A stretch of DNA of 36,134 nucleotides. Origin: an uncultured bacterium (GTDB taxonomy: Bacteria > CSSED10-310 > CAZUFC01). The notes below the pieces were generated by a model. That model saw nothing but the letters and a program-made list of their open reading frames with translations. It made no database searches and had not been told where the DNA came from. The stretch spans positions 1 to 36,134 of the forward strand of contig CAZUFC010000091.1 of the NCBI GenBank assembly GCA_964619725.1. Reading direction: 5' to 3'. The position numbers and the translations under genes were made by a program. Shown one piece after another: positions 4,001 to 36,134 of the stretch. How positions within the stretch are numbered: position 1 is the stretch's first letter; each line of letters begins with the position of its first letter.

Positions 4001-6225
4001 GGTCTGTTGACCGGAATTATCGGTTGATAGTGGGCAATTCGATATTTCATAATAACATTGAATCTGTGCGAGGCCGATCATTCGCTCCCCGCGATGATGT
4101 GCTGCCGGATGATTTCCGGGAGATACGGGAAAAGTGGCGGAGTTATTACAACAGGGCGCTCAGCGGCGAGAATTTCAACATTGAAAATAAAAGACGATAC
4201 ATCGATTCAACCCGCTACATGGAATATCGTTTCAGTCCGATTCGTTCCTCTGAGGGCGTCATAACCGGCGTGACCGTATTCGGCCGGGATATTACCGAAC
4301 GTAAAATAGCTGAAGAAAAACTGAAGGAAAGCGAGAGCCGATACAGGGAGCTGATAGATACGATACCCTACGGAGTGGAGGAAGTTGATCTGGACGGACG
4401 CATGATATTTCTTAACGATTCCTACCATAAAATTCTCGGATACGGACCGGACGAACTTATCGGCAAATATATATGGGATAACGATCCGACGCCGGAAGAT
4501 GTCGGCAGACTGAAAGAATACTTTGAATATTTAAAAAGAGAACAACCGGCTCCAGAACCTTACATTTCAAAAAACGTGAGAAAAGACGGAAAAATTATTG
4601 AAGTGCACGTGGACTGGAATTACAAGAGAGATCAGGACGGCAATCTTAAAGGCTTTATAAGCGTCGTAACCGAAATTACGGAAAGAAAACGTGCGGAGGA
4701 AGCTCTGAAGGAGAGCGAAAAGCAGAAAAAATTGATATTGAATTCTACCGCTGAAATGGTGGCATATTATGATACTGAGTTGACGGTGATCTGGGCCAAC
4801 CGTGCGGCCGGCGAATCTGTGGGAAAAACCCCGCAAGAACTGGTGGGTCGTCACTGTTACGAAATATGGAATGTCCGCAACGAACCATGTCCGGGATGCC
4901 CTGTCATAAAAGCGCGTGACGAAAAAATTCCCGTTCGATGCGAGATGGAAACCCCCGATGGGCGATATTGGTCGTTGCGAGGTTATCCAGTTTTGGATGA
5001 TAAAAACGAGGTCATAGCCTTGGTCGAGTTCGGGCAGGACATAACGGAGCAAAAGAAACACCGGGAAGAAAAAGCACGGTTGGAAGAGCAGTTCCATCAG
5101 GCCCAGAAGCTGGAATCCGTCGGAAGACTGGCGGGCGGAGTAGCGCACGATTTGAACAACCTGCTCTCTCCTATACTGGGATACAGCGAAATACTGCTTA
5201 TGGATGCCAAGAATTATATTGAACTGAAAGAACCCCTGGAAGCGATCATAAATGCAAGCATGCGCGCCCGGGACATGGTGAAAAGGCTTCTGGCTTTCAG
5301 CCGTAAACAGACGCTGGATTTTAAACAGGTCGATATGAACCGGCTTTTGAAAAATTTTGAAAAACTATTGAGGCGCACCATACGGGAAGATATCACTATT
5401 CACGTTAAATTGGCTCCGGCTCTGCCCTCGGTCAAAGGCGATGCCGGACAACTGGAGCAGGTCGTCATGAATCTGGCCGTCAACGCCCAGGATGCCATGC
5501 CTTCCGGCGGCGATCTGACGCTGGAAACCGCTCACGTCCTCCTGGACAACAAAGAGCCCGGAGAACAGGGGCCGGAGCCGGGCGAATTTATTATGCTGGC
5601 TGTCAGCGACACCGGTTGCGGCATTGACGATGAGATCAGAGAACACCTGTTCGAGCCTTTTTTCACGACAAAAGATAAGGATAAAGGTACCGGCTTGGGG
5701 CTGGCGACGGTTTATGGAATAGTCAAACAACACGGAGGCGACATCGTGGCTCACAGTGAACCCGGCAAAGGCGCTGTTTTCAAAGTTTATCTTCCCGTTT
5801 CTTCGGAAATCCTTGATGCCCGCACAGGCGGGACAAAAAGGCCGTCCGACCTGAAAGGGACAGAAACCGTCCTGCTCACAGAAGACGACGAGAATGTGAG
5901 AAAACTCGCCATGAAACTTCTAAAAAGACAGGGATACAAGGTGATAGCTGCGTCAGGCGGAAAAGAAGCCCTGGAAAAATTGAAAGATTGCCAGGATGAA
6001 GTGCACCTCCTTCTGACGGACGTGATTATGCCCGAAATGAACGGAAAAGAACTGTACGAAAAAATAAAAGAAAAACACCCTAATATGAAAGTCCTCTACA
6101 TGTCAGGATACACCAACGACGTCATTGCACACTGCGGCGTCCTGGACGAAGGCATTCACTTCATTCAAAAACCCTTCTCCATCAAAACTCTGGCCGCTAA
6201 AATACGGGAAACTCTGGATGAGTGA
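1057..6225 (+). CDS. Multi-PAS/GAF hybrid sensor histidine kinase with C-terminal receiver
   Basis: Nine PAS/PAC units ending in DITE-like motifs, one GAF, H-box GVAHDLNNLL, N-box NLAVNAQDAM, DTGCG, FEPFFTTK, GTGLGL and REC (EDD...LLLTDVIMP...KPF). Start is 1051 or 1057. Confidence 0.95.
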   Translation: MKKNRRSGSFAGESENLERRIRELEESFRTALFHVDNGMIAADIEGSIVQMNPAAEVLTGWKESEAIGRPVEDVCRLRDEKNGDVAEDPVRRVLREGRAVESDNHILIVSRDGREQFTEYRGLPVRDEQGNPRGVIAFFRDITEKREAQVREEQLNRILQAIRNMNRLITDENDPERLIEKACEHLTEKLGYYHAWIALLDEEGGSVTACTGSGFDGGFMEMEKRLKKNECPSCMKRILEKDELLIVKNPPKECPDCPLADKYGGRAGLSHSISRDERIFGVLTASVPAVYAEDHEKLSLFCELAGDMGFALSKIEKTEALDENREKYRILFDTMVQGVIYQDAEGKIVSANPAAEKILGLSLEEMLGRNSEDKRWKSIREDGSEFPGELHPSMQALRTGESVENEVMGVFNSKLDEYRWIKVNAVPLFKPGQDVPYQVYTTFDDFTERKKAEDALKLNEEKFRMIAESSAEDIWQLDPEGNVTYASPAVESIFGYSAEEAMRTAFQDFFLEEDGERAEKAFKDALSGKEYQLLEFKGKRKNGEEVPIEVSVVPIIRNREIVGVQGIARNITQRKLAETALEESERRYGELFETSRDGFVFVDAEGHFIDANESYCEMLGYTLDELKEKKDFYEITPERWRKWEQKEIWEKRLMKEGYSGIYEKEYIRKDGTVFPVELQSYAFFDDEGNPEYLWGIARDITERKQSEKALRESEERFRALVESAPMSILLLRDGKYIYGNPESARLLGYESANDIVGMDALKTIAPEFQNDVLERMKSIAEGEDNASMELRLVRPDGGILWTLSRSVSVQMDGQPTAIIVGQDITKLKQAEEAHREAMLRLKEVVRASNVGLWDWDLTTNKVRYSPEWKSQIGYEEHEIGDDFEEWRKRVHPDDLENALKGIQTALEEKYPDHEVEFRFRHKNGSYRWILTQASIMYDESGRPVRMLGSHVDITDRKKAERALRESQANLKALIENTDGWIWSVDRNYRLIVGNSIFHNNIESVRGRSFAPRDDVLPDDFREIREKWRSYYNRALSGENFNIENKRRYIDSTRYMEYRFSPIRSSEGVITGVTVFGRDITERKIAEEKLKESESRYRELIDTIPYGVEEVDLDGRMIFLNDSYHKILGYGPDELIGKYIWDNDPTPEDVGRLKEYFEYLKREQPAPEPYISKNVRKDGKIIEVHVDWNYKRDQDGNLKGFISVVTEITERKRAEEALKESEKQKKLILNSTAEMVAYYDTELTVIWANRAAGESVGKTPQELVGRHCYEIWNVRNEPCPGCPVIKARDEKIPVRCEMETPDGRYWSLRGYPVLDDKNEVIALVEFGQDITEQKKHREEKARLEEQFHQAQKLESVGRLAGGVAHDLNNLLSPILGYSEILLMDAKNYIELKEPLEAIINASMRARDMVKRLLAFSRKQTLDFKQVDMNRLLKNFEKLLRRTIREDITIHVKLAPALPSVKGDAGQLEQVVMNLAVNAQDAMPSGGDLTLETAHVLLDNKEPGEQGPEPGEFIMLAVSDTGCGIDDEIREHLFEPFFTTKDKDKGTGLGLATVYGIVKQHGGDIVAHSEPGKGAVFKVYLPVSSEILDARTGGTKRPSDLKGTETVLLTEDDENVRKLAMKLLKRQGYKVIAASGGKEALEKLKDCQDEVHLLLTDVIMPEMNGKELYEKIKEKHPNMKVLYMSGYTNDVIAHCGVLDEGIHFIQKPFSIKTLAAKIRETLDE

Positions 6226-6455
6226 GGATATGGACGACGGGTAAATTTCTCGGAACGGACCTGGCGAATGAGCTGCAGCCGATTTTATATATTTTTTTGG
6301 TTTATGAGAAATGAAAGAGACGGGAATTTTTCGTTCCGGACAATATAGCGACCTGTCGGAATGAGAGCAGAACGGCATTGGTTCATTAAGACAATACAAC
6401 ACAGGAGGACATAGCTCAAGCAGCTTTGACGCCCCTGTTGAAAAGCGAGCATAAT

Positions 6456-7490
6456 ATGAAATTTTCGCTTGAAATTCTACGCTTATATTGGATAGCAGGT
6501 TTTATCGTCTATGTCTGCCTGGTTTCAATTACCGCATTTTTATTCAGAAGAGTATTCCTACAACCGACGAAGTTAAGGTCTTGCATAATACGCGTCGCAC
6601 TTTCAATCTTTACGTCGCTTGCTGTTTTTTTTCTATTCGAATTCGTCTTTTCATTTTTGATAGCGCAATCGGACGGTTTCGGGCATACGCTTGCCTCACG
6701 ATTATGGTTTAAAAAATATTGGAAACCGATTAATTCATTCGGATACCGTGATACTGATAAGAAAGATTTTAGAGGCAGATCGGTATTGTTTGTAGTCGGC
6801 GATTCATTTGTTGCGGGACACGGCGTCAAACAAATAGAACATCGCTTCTCAGAGAAACTTGCAGAAATGCTTGGAGATGCCTGGGAATATGTGGTAATCG
6901 CACGCAACGGGTGGCAAACGGCACAGCAGTTGAAGGCTGCCGGCGATTATCCGGTCAATCCTGATGCCGTCATTCTTTCCTATTTTATCAATGATATTCA
7001 AGGTGCGGCAGAAAAGTCCGGCCTTTCCATACCCCTTTATTTTCCTCAACCTTCTTCGTCCATAAAAAAAATAATCGAACATTCCTTTTTTCTAAACTGG
7101 ATATATTGGAGAGTCGTTCGGGGCTCCATGGGTTCAGATTACTGGAACTACCTCAAAAATTGTTACTCAAACCGGGAGGTCTGGTACGCTCACACTGAGG
7201 AACTTAGCGGTTTCATTCAATATGCAGAAAAAAGGGGATCGGACTTATGCGTCGTGGTATGGCCCAATTTTTTTAAGATTAAAGAATCGCTGGAATTTAC
7301 CAATCGCGTGGCGACTTTTTTCAGAAGTAAAGGAATCCCCGTCGTCGATCTGGCTGATTATTTCAAAAACCGTTCAGCTTCTGAACTAATAGTTAACCAC
7401 ATGGACGATCATCCGAATCCGGAAACTCATCAGAAAGCTGCAACTCTGATTTATGAAAAACTCATCAAAATGGGAGTCGCAGAGCCATGA
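6456..7490 (+). CDS. Membrane-anchored SGNH/GDSL-family hydrolase or O-acyltransferase
   Basis: Two N-terminal hydrophobic helices, NSFGYRD, block I VVGDSF, YFIND and C-terminal DDHPN (DxH). ATG 6456 preferred over TTG 6426. Confidence 0.8.
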   Translation: MKFSLEILRLYWIAGFIVYVCLVSITAFLFRRVFLQPTKLRSCIIRVALSIFTSLAVFFLFEFVFSFLIAQSDGFGHTLASRLWFKKYWKPINSFGYRDTDKKDFRGRSVLFVVGDSFVAGHGVKQIEHRFSEKLAEMLGDAWEYVVIARNGWQTAQQLKAAGDYPVNPDAVILSYFINDIQGAAEKSGLSIPLYFPQPSSSIKKIIEHSFFLNWIYWRVVRGSMGSDYWNYLKNCYSNREVWYAHTEELSGFIQYAEKRGSDLCVVVWPNFFKIKESLEFTNRVATFFRSKGIPVVDLADYFKNRSASELIVNHMDDHPNPETHQKAATLIYEKLIKMGVAEP

Positions 7491-29959: not shown

Positions 29960-30102
29960 GTTTTTGTCCATAAACGGCGAATTTTCCCTAATGCTGCTTC
30001 AGGCGTCGGATTTGCTCAGTCAACGTATAATAAATACGCCTTCTTCGTAAATCCTTGCCTTCCTTGCCTTGAGAAAAATTCGCCCGTTTATGGATCAAAA
30101 AC
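29960..30102. mobile_element. MITE/REP-like palindromic element (~143 bp)
   Basis: Left end GTTTTTGTCCATAAACGGCGAATTTT and right end AAAATTCGCCCGTTTATGGATCAAAAAC are imperfect inverted repeats; nested inner stems GGATTTGC/GTAAATCC and CGTAT/ATACG. Confidence 0.65.
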
Positions 30103-32086: not shown

Positions 32087-33247
32087 ATGGTTTATTTCGA
32101 GAGAATTATCGACATGGAACTGCCGAAAGGGCAGTCTGCTTTCCTGTGGGGCGCGCGGAAAACGGGAAAGTCCACCTACCTGAATAAACAATTCAGCGAC
32201 AGTATTTTGTATGATTTTCTTCAGACCGATTTAACGTTCGAGCTGATCAAACGTCCCTGGAAGCTGAGGGAGATGCTGGCGGCGGAAAACGCGGCAAAAT
32301 TGAATCGTCCCATAATATTGGATGAGGTGCAGAAGGTCCCTCAAGTTTTGAATGAAGTGCACTGGTTAATAGAAAACAGGAATTTATCATTCATATTGTG
32401 CGGATCAAGTGCAAGAAAACTAAAAAGAGGAAATGCCAATCTTCTGGGCGGAAGGGCATGGCGGTATGAGTTATATCCTTTGACGTCGAAAGAAGTGGAA
32501 AATCCTTCTCTTTTACGCGTATTGAACCGGGGCATGTTGCCGGCGCACTATCTTCAGGAGAAACACGAAAAATCCATCAAGGCGTATGTCGGGGATTACC
32601 TGAAAGAAGAGGTATTTGCGGAGGGTTTGACCAGAAACGTGCCGGCATTTTCCCGTTTTTTCGAAGCAATGGCCTATTCACATGGAGAAATGATTAACTA
32701 TTCCAATATAGCCAGGGATTGCGGAGTAGACTCAAAGACCGTCAAGGAATACTTTCTGATATTGACGGACACGTTATTGGGCCGACTCGTTTCACCGTTC
32801 AAAAGGCGACAGAGCCGCCGGGAAATACTCAAAACCCCCAAGTTTTATCTTTTTGATGTAGGAATTGCCGGTGGAATAATTAAGAGGGAGATCAAGGAGG
32901 AGCGGGGAGAGCAATTCGGCAAAGCGCTGGAGCATTTTATTTTCATGGAATTGCAGGCGTATGATTCATACCGGGAAACAGATTTTGATATAAACTACTG
33001 GCGCACGAAGACGGGATTGGAGGTTGATTTCATCCTGGGAAGGGGACATACGGCTATTGAAGTGAAGGGTTCAGATAATATAAAAAACAGAGATTTACAT
33101 CCGATGAAAGCTTTCATTGAAGAATACTCGCCGAAAAACGCAATCGTAGTCTGCAATGAAAAAAGGGCAAGGATCCAAAAAGGAATAAGAATATTACCCT
33201 GGCGAATGTTTCTGGAAGAACTGTGGGAAGGAAAAATAATCGGGTAG
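32087..33247 (+). CDS. AAA+ ATPase (AAA_14-like) with DUF4143/PD-(D/E)xK-like C-terminus
   Basis: GGAGG RBS; Walker A GARKTGKS, Walker B ILDEVQ, CGSS, LLGGRA, PKFYLFDVG, YWRT..GLEVDF...AIEVK. Confidence 0.92.
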   Translation: MVYFERIIDMELPKGQSAFLWGARKTGKSTYLNKQFSDSILYDFLQTDLTFELIKRPWKLREMLAAENAAKLNRPIILDEVQKVPQVLNEVHWLIENRNLSFILCGSSARKLKRGNANLLGGRAWRYELYPLTSKEVENPSLLRVLNRGMLPAHYLQEKHEKSIKAYVGDYLKEEVFAEGLTRNVPAFSRFFEAMAYSHGEMINYSNIARDCGVDSKTVKEYFLILTDTLLGRLVSPFKRRQSRREILKTPKFYLFDVGIAGGIIKREIKEERGEQFGKALEHFIFMELQAYDSYRETDFDINYWRTKTGLEVDFILGRGHTAIEVKGSDNIKNRDLHPMKAFIEEYSPKNAIVVCNEKRARIQKGIRILPWRMFLEELWEGKIIG

Positions 33248-33687
33248 TTTCCTGTCCGTCGAATCATTCATAAATCAAGCTCCCCGTTTCCGCCCCAAGT
33301 TTAATACGGAAAGTTGAACTGATCCGCTGCACACGCCACCGTGATCCATTCAGGTCAAGGCGTCCTCGCCCCGTTCCGTCGAGTCTCCGGTATAAATTTT
33401 GCTATAATATCATGAATTTTATCGTGAATCAGTTTCATGATGCGGTTTGCCGATAAAAAATCATAATTTTCCGAAAAAAATCCCGCCAAAGGACAAACTG
33501 AAAAATGCTTTTTTTCCGAAGCCGTTTCCGCCGCATACTCATTCACGCGTGAATCCCGGTCATCTTGACCCGGCGATATTGTGTGCATCCTTGACATGGC
33601 AGACTAAATCAATCCTCATATCCATAGGCTTCATTCAACCAACTGTCTGGGAGATTCATCCGTCTAAGCTTGCCGCGAAGCGGTTTA

Positions 33688-33776
33688 GTTCAACGGCTCA
33701 GGATAACCGGCGTCGAGGGAGTCGTGTTGACTTTTGGTTAAGTGTTTTCGCCGTCCGGTTCATCCGGTGGTTATCC
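33688..33776 (-). mobile_element. Integron attC site (89 bp)
   Basis: Minus strand: R'' GGATAAC, L'' GGATGAAC (extra G), L' GTTATCC, R' GTTGAAC; 21 bp after the PIN toxin stop. Confidence 0.85.
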
Positions 33777-33797
33777 ACTGGCTAATGGGAAAAGTAT

Positions 33798-34250
33798 TCA
33801 CTTAGCATTCCCCTCCATTTCATCTGATGAGGCCGATCTTCCTTGCAGCATCGCATCTATTTCATCAGGACCAAACACCGGCAGAACAGCATGTTTAAAA
33901 TCGGCAATATCACGGGTGATTATCCCATCGGCAGAGATAGCTCTTGCTGATTCATGCAGCACGGCATCTTCAAAATCGCCGAAATCCAGGGTCAAAGCAT
34001 CCAATAATACAGGTCGGTTTACAGGAGCGATTTCAAACAGCTTCAATAATGAAGAAAGACATTTCCTTGCGACATCAACCCCAAGGTTTTTGCGAACAAT
34101 GTAATAAATTGTCGTTACAGTTGTTCCGCACAGGTAACCCGCTATCTCGCCTGTTTCCACTAGAGCGAATATTCGTAAGGCTGATTCCCCAAACGGATGT
34201 CGTTTGAGCAGGACATCCAAAATGACGTTTGTATCAACCAGAACTTTCAT
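33798..34250 (-). CDS. PIN-domain (VapC-like) toxin
   Basis: MKVLVDTNVILD, DFEDAV, IITRD..DF; ATGA overlap with the upstream antitoxin. Confidence 0.92.
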   Translation of the reverse strand: MKVLVDTNVILDVLLKRHPFGESALRIFALVETGEIAGYLCGTTVTTIYYIVRKNLGVDVARKCLSSLLKLFEIAPVNRPVLLDALTLDFGDFEDAVLHESARAISADGIITRDIADFKHAVLPVFGPDEIDAMLQGRSASSDEMEGNAK

Positions 34251-34492
34251 CGGTGCTTTTCCTCGAGATGATCAAAATATTCACGCTCATCAGCACAGGT
34301 TCCTTCGAGAATTCCCCAAAGGGAGCGCGTGATGGGCGGCAAGTCATCCGCCATTACTGCCGCCGAGGTCCTGCTAAGGAAGGCGAAGTAATTCTCGACT
34401 AGCTTGGATAAAGATGTTTCTTTGCGCTGAGCATAATCTTTCGCCCGCTCTATTATCTCAGAGTCCAATCGGAGAGTCAGTTTGGTTTGCAT
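34247..34492 (-). CDS. RHH-type antitoxin (DUF6364-like)
   Basis: TKLTLRLD.EIIERAK.YA....SLSKLVENYF and PPITRSLWGIL; AAGGAGG RBS. Confidence 0.88.
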   Translation of the reverse strand: MQTKLTLRLDSEIIERAKDYAQRKETSLSKLVENYFAFLSRTSAAVMADDLPPITRSLWGILEGTCADEREYFDHLEEKHR

Positions 34493-34502
34493 AAGCGCCT
34501 CC

Positions 34503-34554
34503 TTGCACGTGCAATCACCTCATCTAATATACGTCATCTCTTGTTGGATGTCAA
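34503..34554 (-). promoter_or_regulatory. TA-cassette promoter and palindromic operator
   Basis: TTGACA (34554-34549), 17 bp, TATATT (34531-34526); perfect palindrome TTGCACGTGCAA at 34503-34514 abutting the RBS. Confidence 0.75.
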
Positions 34555-34679
34555 AAATTTAATAATTTCAGAACTCCTGATAAGGACAACCTAACATATT
34601 GAAATCAATTGTCTTTTTTATACAGAGTCTCGGCATAAAATTGTGCAGTTTTTAGCCCCCCCTATATCCGGTAGAAGAG

Positions 34680-34783
34680 CGTTGATTTAATCGAAATTCG
34701 ATGCGAACCATGGAAATAAGAAAAGATTTTGAGATATGATGTCTAATGATTTTTAAGGGCTTTCATTTTCAATTAAATCAACG
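34680..34783. repeat. Inverted-repeat-bounded element (MITE-like)
   Basis: CGTTGATTTAATCGAAA (34680-34696) and TTTCAATTAAATCAACG (34767-34783) are a 16/17 inverted match. Confidence 0.55.
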
Positions 34784-34984
34784 GACCCACAGGCGGGGGG
34801 ACTTTGTTTTACTTGAATTTTTTTGATCGATTGCTGGATTTTCGTCAAACATTTCACAATTTTTTATCGGTCAATGTCAGGATATGTGAATTTCTATTGC
34901 CCAAACAAACGATTTCAGCGTTTTATGTCAAGGAACACAAAGTTTTCTAGCATAAGACGATATTATTGACTCACGATGCTATTC

Positions 34985-35054
34985 GGATAACGGTTAAAAT
35001 CAGCCGCCAACCGGAGCACCGCGGAGGTTGGTCGGCTGCATTTTTTTGTTATGC
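34985..35054 (-). mobile_element. Integron attC site (70 bp)
   Basis: Minus strand: R'' GCATAAC, L'' AAATGCAG (extra G), CCGACCAACC/GGTTGGCGG stem, L' CTGATTT, R' GTTATCC; 19 bp after a stop codon. Confidence 0.9.
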
Positions 35055-35073
35055 AAACTCTTAACTTCACAAA

Positions 35074-35463
35074 TTATATTTTCCATTCAATATGTCCCTC
35101 TTTTTCAGCGCCAGAACACCAATATGACATGCCGACATGCGAAACACGAATAACTTTCCCCATACGTTTGGCTTTTGTTTTAAATCTTTGATGATGAATT
35201 ACTCGGCGGATAAAATTAGCGACTTCTTCTTTCCTCACATCGAGATAAACCAGACAGTATCCTGAATAACATAATTTGCGGTTATAAAAATCGTCATCAC
35301 GAGTAAAAAATGTGGGTTTATTTAGTTGATGTAAATAGGGAATTATTTCAGAATCTTTCATCCCCTTCCGTCCAACTTCATATCCAATCTGACGCACATT
35401 TATCCTCAAGCTTTTTAACAGGCGACGCTGGTTGTCGATAATGTTTTCGTCGAGAATATTCAT
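35074..35463 (-). CDS. PIN-like toxin (DUF5615/VapC45-like)
   Basis: MNILDENI, KDSEII, FFTRDDDF; ATGA overlap with the DUF433 gene. Confidence 0.8.
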   Translation of the reverse strand: MNILDENIIDNQRRLLKSLRINVRQIGYEVGRKGMKDSEIIPYLHQLNKPTFFTRDDDFYNRKLCYSGYCLVYLDVRKEEVANFIRRVIHHQRFKTKAKRMGKVIRVSHVGMSYWCSGAEKEGHIEWKI

Positions 35464-35732
35464 ACCGCTGTGGAGTCCAAAGTGTATTTCTCTGCATTTT
35501 CAAGAAAAGCTTGTCTTGATAATCTGACAGATTCAGCGATAGCCTCATAGGAAACACTTCCACGCCATTCTTGAATGATTGTCTCCCAGGCAAGACCAGC
35601 TGCGACTTGTTCAAGAACATCAGCAACTAAAATGCGTGTTCCACGAAATGTCGGCTTACCATGACAAATTTCCGGATCAGTGACGATGTAACGTCCAACG
35701 AATTTTCTTTTCACCTTTTTAACGTCTCCCAT
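35460..35732 (-). CDS. DUF433 antitoxin
   Basis: IVTDPEICHGKPTFRGTRILVADVLE; AAGGAGG RBS before ATG 35732. Confidence 0.92.
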   Translation of the reverse strand: MGDVKKVKRKFVGRYIVTDPEICHGKPTFRGTRILVADVLEQVAAGLAWETIIQEWRGSVSYEAIAESVRLSRQAFLENAEKYTLDSTAV

Positions 35733-35756
35733 TGATTTCTTATCCTCCTTAATCAT

Positions 35757-35814
35757 CTGTGTGTCGATCCACACACATCCGCTTAATTATAAAAATTTAA
35801 TATTGAAAGATCAA
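35757..35814 (-). promoter_or_regulatory. Promoter and operator-like inverted repeat of the DUF433 cassette
   Basis: TTGATC (35814-35809), 17 bp, TATAAT (35791-35786); TGTGTG-tcgatc-CACACA inverted repeat between promoter and RBS. Confidence 0.65.
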
Positions 35815-35855
35815 TAACGTGGAATCCATATCGCTATAGAAAATAGAAATCAGAC

Positions 35856-35914
35856 AACGAACGTTCTGCGTCAGCCGCAAGCGAAGCGAATCAGACTGAA
35901 CGCAGTTGTTATGC
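35856..35914 (-). mobile_element. Integron attC site (59 bp)
   Basis: Minus strand: GCATAAC-AACT-GCGTTCAG...CTGACGC-AGAAC-GTTCGTT, i.e. R'', L'' with an extra T, L' and a degenerate R'; 7 bp after a stop codon. Confidence 0.85.
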
Positions 35915-35921
35915 CAAAAAT

Positions 35922-36134
35922 TTATTTGGTTAGCATCCAAAACAGCAGCCCCAAGGATAAGATTGTGCCAATCCCGGCAGAGGCAGCACACAAATAATAG
36001 AACAGGCTGTTTGCTTTACTCATGCCTTTTGTTCCAAAAGTGACATATCTTTTATTCCTGAAATGAGGAATCTTGGCCATAACCCAAGTTTCCCAGAAGG
36101 AAAAATAAGAATTCAGTAAAATCAATGGGTTAGG
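35922..36134 (-). CDS. Partial cassette-borne hypothetical membrane protein (5' end outside window)
   Basis: Frame is open to the window edge, has a hydrophobic C-terminal helix, and stops just before attC. Confidence 0.6.
   Translation of the reverse strand, partial: PNPLILLNSYFSFWETWVMAKIPHFRNKRYVTFGTKGMSKANSLFYYLCAASAGIGTILSLGLLFWMLTK

Follow-up and report, generated by a model that had tools for sequence, protein, structure and literature searches.

The last ~2.4 kb of a 36,134-bp contig from an uncultured bacterium (GenBank assembly GCA_964619725.1, contig CAZUFC010000091.1, here C91; the entire contig is the window of this analysis) carries, at 33688-36079, what is very probably a fragment of an integron cassette array without an adjoining integrase, i.e. 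a cluster of attC sites that has no integron integrase (CALIN). Two firm attC sites and one weak one were found in a real cassette array, and its interpretation as an attC array with two consecutive toxin-antitoxin cassettes is supported. The host is represented by a metagenome-assembled genome (MAG) of 9.17 Mb in 344 contigs, 90.9% complete and 6.5% contaminated. Its closest kin in the genome library are related at the phylum level only, and the stretch is present in four public runs, all from one microbial-mat study. The sites and cassettes are as follows:

33688-33776, minus strand: attC site 1, 89 bp, 21 nt past the stop codon (33798-33800) of the PIN gene
33694-34990, minus strand: DUF6364/PIN_3 toxin-antitoxin cassette
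34985-35054, minus strand: attC site 2, 70 bp, 19 nt past the stop codon (35074-35076) of the DUF5615 gene
34991-35861, minus strand: DUF433/DUF5615 toxin-antitoxin cassette
35856-35914, minus strand: weak attC site 3, 59 bp when R' is placed according to covariance model R2 (below), or 63 bp from 35852 with another AAC
35862 to ~36079, minus strand: truncated cassette with an open reading frame (ORF) of 52 aa

All credible genes of the array region are on the minus strand, and the bottom (folding) strand of the attC sites is the plus strand of the window. Site 3 follows the stop codon (35922-35924) of the 52-aa ORF by 7 nt. Positions, lengths and distances to stop codons all agree with those given for three minus-strand attC sites in a first-pass annotation of the sequence, and the lengths and post-stop positions are within the range expected for attC (~57-141 bp). 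All three are on one strand, with 1.2 kb between sites 1 and 2 and another 0.8 kb to site 3. PMC4889954 defines a CALIN by two or more same-strand attC sites separated by less than 4 kb and by the lack of a nearby integron integrase; the spacing and strand of the array agree with this definition.

Analysis of the outer boxes on the minus strand identified them as GGATAAC...GTTGAAC at site 1, GCATAAC...GTTATCC at site 2 and GCATAAC...GTTCGTT at site 3. On the cassette strand R'' (..AAC) correctly precedes R' (GTT..) at all three sites, R' being divided as G|TTGAAC at site 1 and G|TTATCC at site 2; AAC and GTT were found in 20-21 of 22 reference sites. In the plus strand of sites 1 and 2 a T and a C bulge from the 3' arm, with the same geometry in both. 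Folded as DNA, site 2 gave a z of -3.47, equalled by 0 of 200 shuffles, and site 1 was moderately above its shuffles (z -2.31). Site 3 has a 9-bp stem with a single bulged A at the position of the second bulge. A scan for AAC...GTT with folding ranked site 2 first and site 1 fifth, and listed unrelated hairpins too. Rfam, which holds no attC family, gave no match in the window at its gathering threshold and a single match, one tRNA, on 16 related loci.

The attC sites had also been described as different from each other and therefore of mixed origins. Their sequences do differ, and a blastn search of the genome found site 1 repeated and no second copy of site 2 or site 3, but sites 1 and 2 share one architecture; because they share the bulge geometry, different attC sequences need not mean different recombination systems. 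Classical attC sites such as attC-aadA7 resemble those of the window in the AAC/GTT outer boxes, in the imperfect hairpin with two bulges on one bottom-strand arm and in a length of 59-89 bp. In the classical sites of mobile integrons the bulges are T and G at a different spacing, whereas in the window a 6-bp stem separates a bulged T from a bulged C.

Two covariance models were built without sequence from the window: R1 from 31 other genome copies of the site-1 family, and R2 from a MAFFT alignment of 22 diverse sites, two of which came from the phylum-mates G004 and G008 with intact IntI genes. R1 scored site 1 at 95.4 bits (E 1.7e-28) and matched site 2 over its full length on the same strand at 23.9 bits (E 3e-5); the E-values of both models are rough. 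R2 matched the plus strand at 33685-33780 (61.5 bits, E 5e-18), at 34982-35057 (50.0 bits, E 3e-14) and, weakly, at 35853-35918 (site 3; 18.1 bits, E 0.001), and its fourth-best match in 36 kb on both strands had E=1.4. Exactly the three annotated sites are thus matched at E<=0.001. To the left of site 1 neither R1 nor R2 gave an additional match in the window.

The site-1 family comprises ~39 copies of 82-89 bp on ~30 contigs of the genome (blastn and iterated nhmmer). In its alignment the left part consists of the ..AAC box, a spacer and GGATAACCGGCGGCGA, and the right part of TCGCCG-T-CCGGTT-C-ATCC, a spacer and the GTT.. box, with T and C bulged on the 3' arm. Covariation within this family (alignment A1) scored 0.092 against 0.095 in shuffles, which is uninformative given how similar the copies are; RNAalifold gave part of the helix only. 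Sites were found by R1 and a structural scan with the same geometry and different sequences on C259 (three), C166, C122, C282, C318, C270, C102 and C248, and such sites were also present beside the intact integron-integrase genes of G004 and G008. In the 22-site alignment 90% of inner-helix cells are paired and 8 of 12 pairs have changed on both sides. The number of compensatory cells was 58, compared with 20.6 +/- 3.7 in shuffles (0 of 500 reached 58), and the covariation score was 0.388, compared with at most 0.114 with slid partners. The bulge columns are conserved, with T in 20 and C in 19 of the 22 reference sites. A relaxed local scan was noisy (165 matches, 86 in shuffles) and served only as a source of candidates for R2. 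A regular-expression scan of the genome recovered sites 1 and 2 and new arrays, with 65 matches against 54 in a reversed-sequence control; no enrichment is claimed from it because another repeat family dominates that control.

The borders of the cassettes provided a further line of evidence. A cassette starts at the TT in the upstream R' box and finishes at the G in its own, and its first bases should therefore complement its own R'' box; the two boxes of one attC in an array need not match. The PIN cassette starts with TTATCC, the distal part of the site 2 R' box, and its own attC begins with GGATAAC, the exact complement, as had been pointed out for this cassette. Eleven pairs of adjacent sites, picked by hand and with boxes read by eye, were then compared: the upstream R' and downstream R'' boxes agreed at 38 of 44 variable positions (permutation mean 26.1, p ~6e-4), and at 33 of 36 without the two pairs from the window (p ~0.01). 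Boxes within one site agreed at just 37 of 72. Agreement for the PIN cassette (site 2 to site 1) was 4 of 4, and this with an unusual box, GGAT.

The genes and promoter-like sequences of the array are:

33798-34250, minus strand: PIN-domain toxin gene, 150 aa (Pfam PIN_3, 1.3e-25)
34247-34492, minus strand: putative antitoxin gene, 81 aa (Pfam DUF6364, 1.9e-23)
34526-34554, minus strand: promoter-like TTGACA-17-TATATT upstream of the DUF6364/PIN pair, 11 of 12 consensus positions
35074-35463, minus strand: PIN-like toxin gene, 129 aa (Pfam DUF5615, 1.8e-05; 25.0 bits against a cut-off of 23.8)
35460-35774, minus strand: DUF433 (COG2442) antitoxin gene, 104 aa from GTG (Pfam DUF433, 1.2e-13)
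35786-35814, minus strand: promoter-like TTGATC-17-TATAAT upstream of the DUF433/DUF5615 pair, 10 of 12 consensus positions
35922-36080, minus strand: ORF of the third cassette, 52 aa, with its ATG where the terminal repeat joins

The Pfam assignments bear out the proposal of consecutive toxin-antitoxin cassettes. The DUF6364 gene is upstream of the PIN_3 gene and the DUF433 gene upstream of the DUF5615 gene, each overlapping its partner by 4 nt, and both pairs fit the VapBC-like type II gene order of a small antitoxin gene followed by an overlapping PIN-type toxin gene. The DUF6364 protein is a predicted antitoxin because its gene precedes the PIN gene and overlaps it by these 4 nt. For the second pair there is a precedent, since a DUF433 (COG2442)-PIN pair, VapBC10, is reported in PMC3834315 as a demonstrated toxin-antitoxin system of Synechocystis, in which the DUF433 gene likewise precedes and overlaps a PIN-like nuclease gene. 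The window toxin differs in being a DUF5615 protein barely above the Pfam cut-off, and the toxin and antitoxin roles in the window are predicted. Relatives of the DUF5615 toxin in metagenome contigs were 57-78% identical; the closest PIN relatives, from scattered phyla, were at most 53% identical. The 52-aa ORF, possibly spurious or truncated, had no Pfam, NCBIfam or PADLOC match. Directly upstream of the two gene pairs are the best two promoter-like sites of the region; such sites number 7 in the region against 5.8 in shuffles, which is not above chance, and both candidates are leads only. A phage-defence role, which had been suggested for such cassettes, found no support, as none of the five cassette proteins matched PADLOC.

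Genes for the integron integrase were searched for throughout the MAG with TIGR02249, as the first-pass annotation had recommended. Contig C91 gave no match, ending 220 nt beyond site 3 inside a repeat. The sole match above the NCBIfam cut-off was C123:22396-23022 (292.9 bits), which covers model positions 105-313 of 315; the IntI-specific insertion is kept, the N-terminus is missing, and VP replaces the usual GH before the catalytic tyrosine region. A second copy, C213:2623-3147, has an internal deletion and a TGA, and two of three shorter pieces (C152:14373-14504, C104:15477-15614 and C252:4025-4279) contain stop codons. None of the five IntI-like pieces is intact. The C123 fragment lies ~4.4 kb from two copies of the site-1 family, and the contig of the C213 remnant also has two. 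A complete integron, with an intI gene including its extra domain and an attI site adjoining the array, was accordingly not found in the assembly.

Scoring of 150 candidates with R2 gave 50 matches at E<=0.1, dispersed over 33 contigs of the genome. Grouped by the 4-kb rule, 24 sites fall into nine clusters of 2-5 and 26 are single; of the latter, at least 13 are over 5 kb from either contig end and many are behind a toxin-antitoxin gene. The largest cluster, on C166, has five sites, compared with the single large array of more than 19 (Cury et al.) homogeneous attC sites by an intI gene in a sedentary chromosomal integron. In 24 of 30 assessable copies of the site-1 family a co-oriented ORF ends within 250 nt upstream or runs up to ~40 nt into the site, and in 14 of 31 a toxin-antitoxin family (PIN, DUF5615/DUF433, HicA/HicB, DUF3368/UPF0175, DUF4258/DUF2283, TumE or DUF2442) includes this ORF or its partner. 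R2 also matched 12 of 13 same-phylum genomes, where the T/C-bulge geometry recurs, against 5 of 27 other genomes, and 6 of 7 relatives carrying IntI above the cut-off. Full-length IntI was matched in 4 of the 13 same-phylum genomes, and 8 of the 12 with T/C-bulge attC sites had no IntI match above the cut-off.

Both the ends and the interior of the array bear repeats and insertions:

33660-33687, no strand assigned: stretch beside the site 1 R' box, with hairpin CCGCGAAGCGG
34563-34893, no strand assigned: nested repeat resembling a miniature inverted-repeat transposable element (MITE), in the leader of the PIN cassette
36080-36134, no strand assigned: 55-nt repeat boundary that ends contig C91 and cuts the array

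In the MITE-like repeat an outer element of ~215 bp bears a GC-rich hairpin with a T-run after it, and the loop of this outer element is interrupted by an inner one of ~116-150 bp. It has 45-117 blastn copies per position in the genome and a summed metagenome contig depth of 200-330 against ~10 in the flanks (20-30x); some metagenome contigs skip the inner part. Without this repeat the PIN cassette is ~970 bp long.

The 55-nt repeat is identical to the ends of C231 (start, reverse) and C279 and 98% identical to C309:3158-3209. This 55-mer is common to three contig ends; the third cassette is therefore interrupted, at the ATG of its ORF, by an unassembled repeat. The MAG does not contain the body of this repeat, and no contig overlaps the ends of C91, the 55-mer being all that is shared; it is probably the end of an insertion sequence (IS) or other repeat. 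Because the contig end cuts the array, the array may be larger than seen here and the lack of an adjoining intI is provisional.

At the other end, the stretch at 33660-33687 occurs in the same or a variant form at the same position of six other attC sites of the genome (flank alignment), and exactly on C290, C52, C166 and C282 (blastn). It belongs to a unit starting TTGAAC TAAACCGCTTCGCGGG on the cassette strand, which abuts the R' box of seven attC sites of two types (window 33660-33687; C282:1472-1839; C166:4562-4918; C6:106032-106381; C52:10430-10795; C290; C60). On C282 the unit extends into genes for a tyrosine recombinase and for a transposase of the IS91 family (Zn_Tnp_IS91), and the same kind of transposase follows the IntI remnant on C123. 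The unit may be an IS91-type element that targets GTTC in the box, a target preference that we take to be typical of such elements. Alternatively, the unit may represent a neighbouring cassette that recurs; the copy on C166 terminates in a 56-nt hairpin, and the R'' box of this hairpin is complementary to the start of the unit.

Site 3 calls for separate consideration. It is a real possibility, if short of an even chance, that only sites 1 and 2 are attC, that site 3 is a chance hairpin and that the DNA to the right of 35775 is not a third cassette. Several results favour this possibility and so weigh against the array as described. The fold of site 3 has a z of only -0.83 and is equalled by 45 of 200 shuffles; R1 gave it 8.7 bits on the wrong strand; its R2 score of 18.1 bits is not significant genome-wide, and the site is absent from the genome-wide list. 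The 52-aa ORF is without a family. Box agreement for the DUF433/DUF5615 cassette (site 3 to site 2) is only 1 of 4, and 0 of 4, read by eye, when the site 3 R' box chosen by R2 is compared with the site 2 R'' box; this counts against site 3 or points to later change. On the other side, site 3 is the third-best R2 match of the window on the correct strand, three orders of magnitude in E ahead of the next, it follows a stop codon closely, its R'' box, GTTATGC on the bottom strand, is identical to that of site 2, and the succession of bulge, 5 bp, TT and GTTATGC is as in site 2. The CALIN reading as a whole also has points to answer. R1 and R2 test only consistency with the local family because they were built from this genome and phylum, and the attC nature of that family rests on structure, cassette borders, orientation and the link with integrases; for the borders, the hand-picking of site pairs has to be borne in mind. 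Beside 80 PIN homologues in other genomes R1 found nothing convincing (best E 0.036), and beside 24 DUF5615 homologues in metagenome contigs its best E was 0.16; these absences say little because R1 is family-specific. Evidence for cassette circles, another check proposed with the first-pass annotation, was not obtained either: contigs from the four mat runs had no joint at any attC and only joints inside the MITE-like repeat, contigs being a source that drops rare variants, in which rare circles would not show.

The array could instead be the distal part of a complete integron, with intI and attI beyond the repeat at 36080 and left unassembled or unbinned. The cassettes read right to left, and a classical divergent intI would therefore sit to the right, where the contig stops in the repeat common to three contig ends. 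With a MAG at 90.9% completeness and a contig that stops within a repeat, an intact intI may exist unassembled, which would tell against a CALIN; some same-phylum genomes do carry full-length IntI, as described above. We nevertheless regard a complete integron as unlikely: the sole IntI above the cut-off is truncated, the other pieces have deletions or stops, and the attC sites are scattered, so that with nine clusters and 26 single sites on 33 contigs most arrays cannot adjoin an integrase. The first-pass annotation had left the choice between an intI beyond 36134 and a CALIN, and the present evidence, with all IntI copies of the MAG degraded, favours the CALIN. It is highly improbable that integron recombination was never involved and that the sites are dispersed palindromic repeats, either like MITEs or repetitive extragenic palindromes (REP) or as terminators of toxin-antitoxin operons. 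Such a view would account for the many copies of the site-1 family, a good number of them among housekeeping-like genes, for a genome rich in other small repeats and for the lack of excision joints in contigs. A MITE/REP model does not predict box matching across borders or strand bias behind genes, nor conserved bulges with compensatory stem changes in unrelated sequences, nor the same architecture by intact IntI elsewhere and IntI remnants beside copies of the family.

The CALIN reading is based on direct observation of the sites, their covarying structure, orientation and box matching, the Pfam families and the lack of an intact intI in the assembly. Under this reading each cassette ends in an attC whose bottom strand would fold into an imperfect hairpin with bulges on the 3' arm. 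An integron integrase would cut this strand between A and C of the AAC box, and the cassette would leave as a circle and re-insert. Each toxin-antitoxin pair may be expressed from its own promoter, making loss of the array costly. The array would now be immobile unless an integrase acts in trans; it may have been separated from its integrase or have outlived it through IS and repeat activity at both ends, and the PIN cassette would later have received the nested MITE-like insertion.

A wider and rather doubtful proposal is that the integron system carried toxin-antitoxin cassettes as selfish passengers, which spread over the chromosome and outlived the integrase. It is suggested by the single lineage-specific attC type (bulged T and C with a 6-bp stem between) that marks ~50 sites, and by the 89-bp site-1 family, which mostly follows toxin-antitoxin genes. 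Spread would occur by integrase-mediated insertion at non-att sites, or by co-mobilisation with the IS91-family unit at seven attC sites, and such cassettes would outlive the integrase because they cannot be lost.

The array may be compared with known systems. Like the CALINs described in PMC4889954, it has at least two attC sites on one strand less than 4 kb apart, with no integrase on the assembled contig, and its cassettes bear no relation to those for resistance; the origins proposed there, integrase loss or rearrangement, agree with the IS elements and intI pseudogenes present elsewhere in the genome. The CALINs of that source were called with IntegronFinder, whereas the sites of the window were called with R1 and R2 built here. 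With the sedentary chromosomal integrons of Vibrio, as described in PMC13108822 and PMC11023631, the array shares type II toxin-antitoxin cassettes having their own attC and, apparently, their own promoters. The Vibrio integrons hold hundreds of cassettes, unlike this three-cassette fragment from a genome in which no active integrase was found, and stabilising or regulatory roles would be attributed to it by analogy. The 26 single sites among the 50 R2 matches resemble the single attC sites lacking integron integrases (SALIN) presented, together with attG insertion of cassettes, in bioRxiv 10.1101/2022.09.11.507474. The window itself, unlike these, contains a cluster, and insertion by an integrase at genomic sites would be a presumed step here. 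Some of the single sites may belong to arrays broken by assembly.

A number of other features were observed. A possible fourth, decayed unit at 33314-33693 starts with TTGAAC at the site 1 R' box and contains an 80-aa ORF (33355-33597) with no family match. At 33314-33320 on the plus strand it has GTTGAAC, the exact complement expected for its R'' box, with a 6-bp hairpin adjoining; neither R1 nor R2 matched this unit. Further left, 29969-30092 is a 124-bp near-perfect hairpin followed to 30209 by direct repeats with GGACAGGCACTA..TGTCCA and TTAAATTTTGAATCGA, and very similar motifs are present on C123:21900-22330, just upstream of the truncated intI. The gene at 32087-33247 (plus strand), convergent with the array, encodes an AAA_14/DUF4143 ATPase that matches PDC-S01, a candidate defence family of PADLOC (best E 1.5e-50); it has no flanking attC.

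In the same genome, arrays of the same attC type with defence-like genes were seen at C282:1913-3279, C248:3016-4542 and 5908-6858, and C122:20607-23267. Two attC sites enclose genes for a ThsB-like TIR protein and a caspase-family protease; further cargo consists of a TIR/SEFIR protein of 509 aa, a protein with an AbiJ N-terminal domain, a nuclease of the Mrr type and a fragment of DruA. Among the relatives, R2 matches numbered 29 in G004 and 15 in G015, with others in G001, G010 and further genomes; in G004 (9.2 Mb), which has four IntI matches, they were clustered on its contigs C43 and C56.

The array in the window is of a kind already known and holds nothing surprising to specialists. Its contribution is a verified array whose cassettes carry toxin-antitoxin genes, in an uncultured bacterium of a microbial mat. 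The attC architecture found across the phylum could help to tune attC detection outside Proteobacteria, and the sites are candidate substrates for the intact integrases of related genomes. Overall, toxin-antitoxin cassettes bearing attC sites and scattered through a genome with decayed integrases bear on the origin and persistence of CALINs and of single attC sites.

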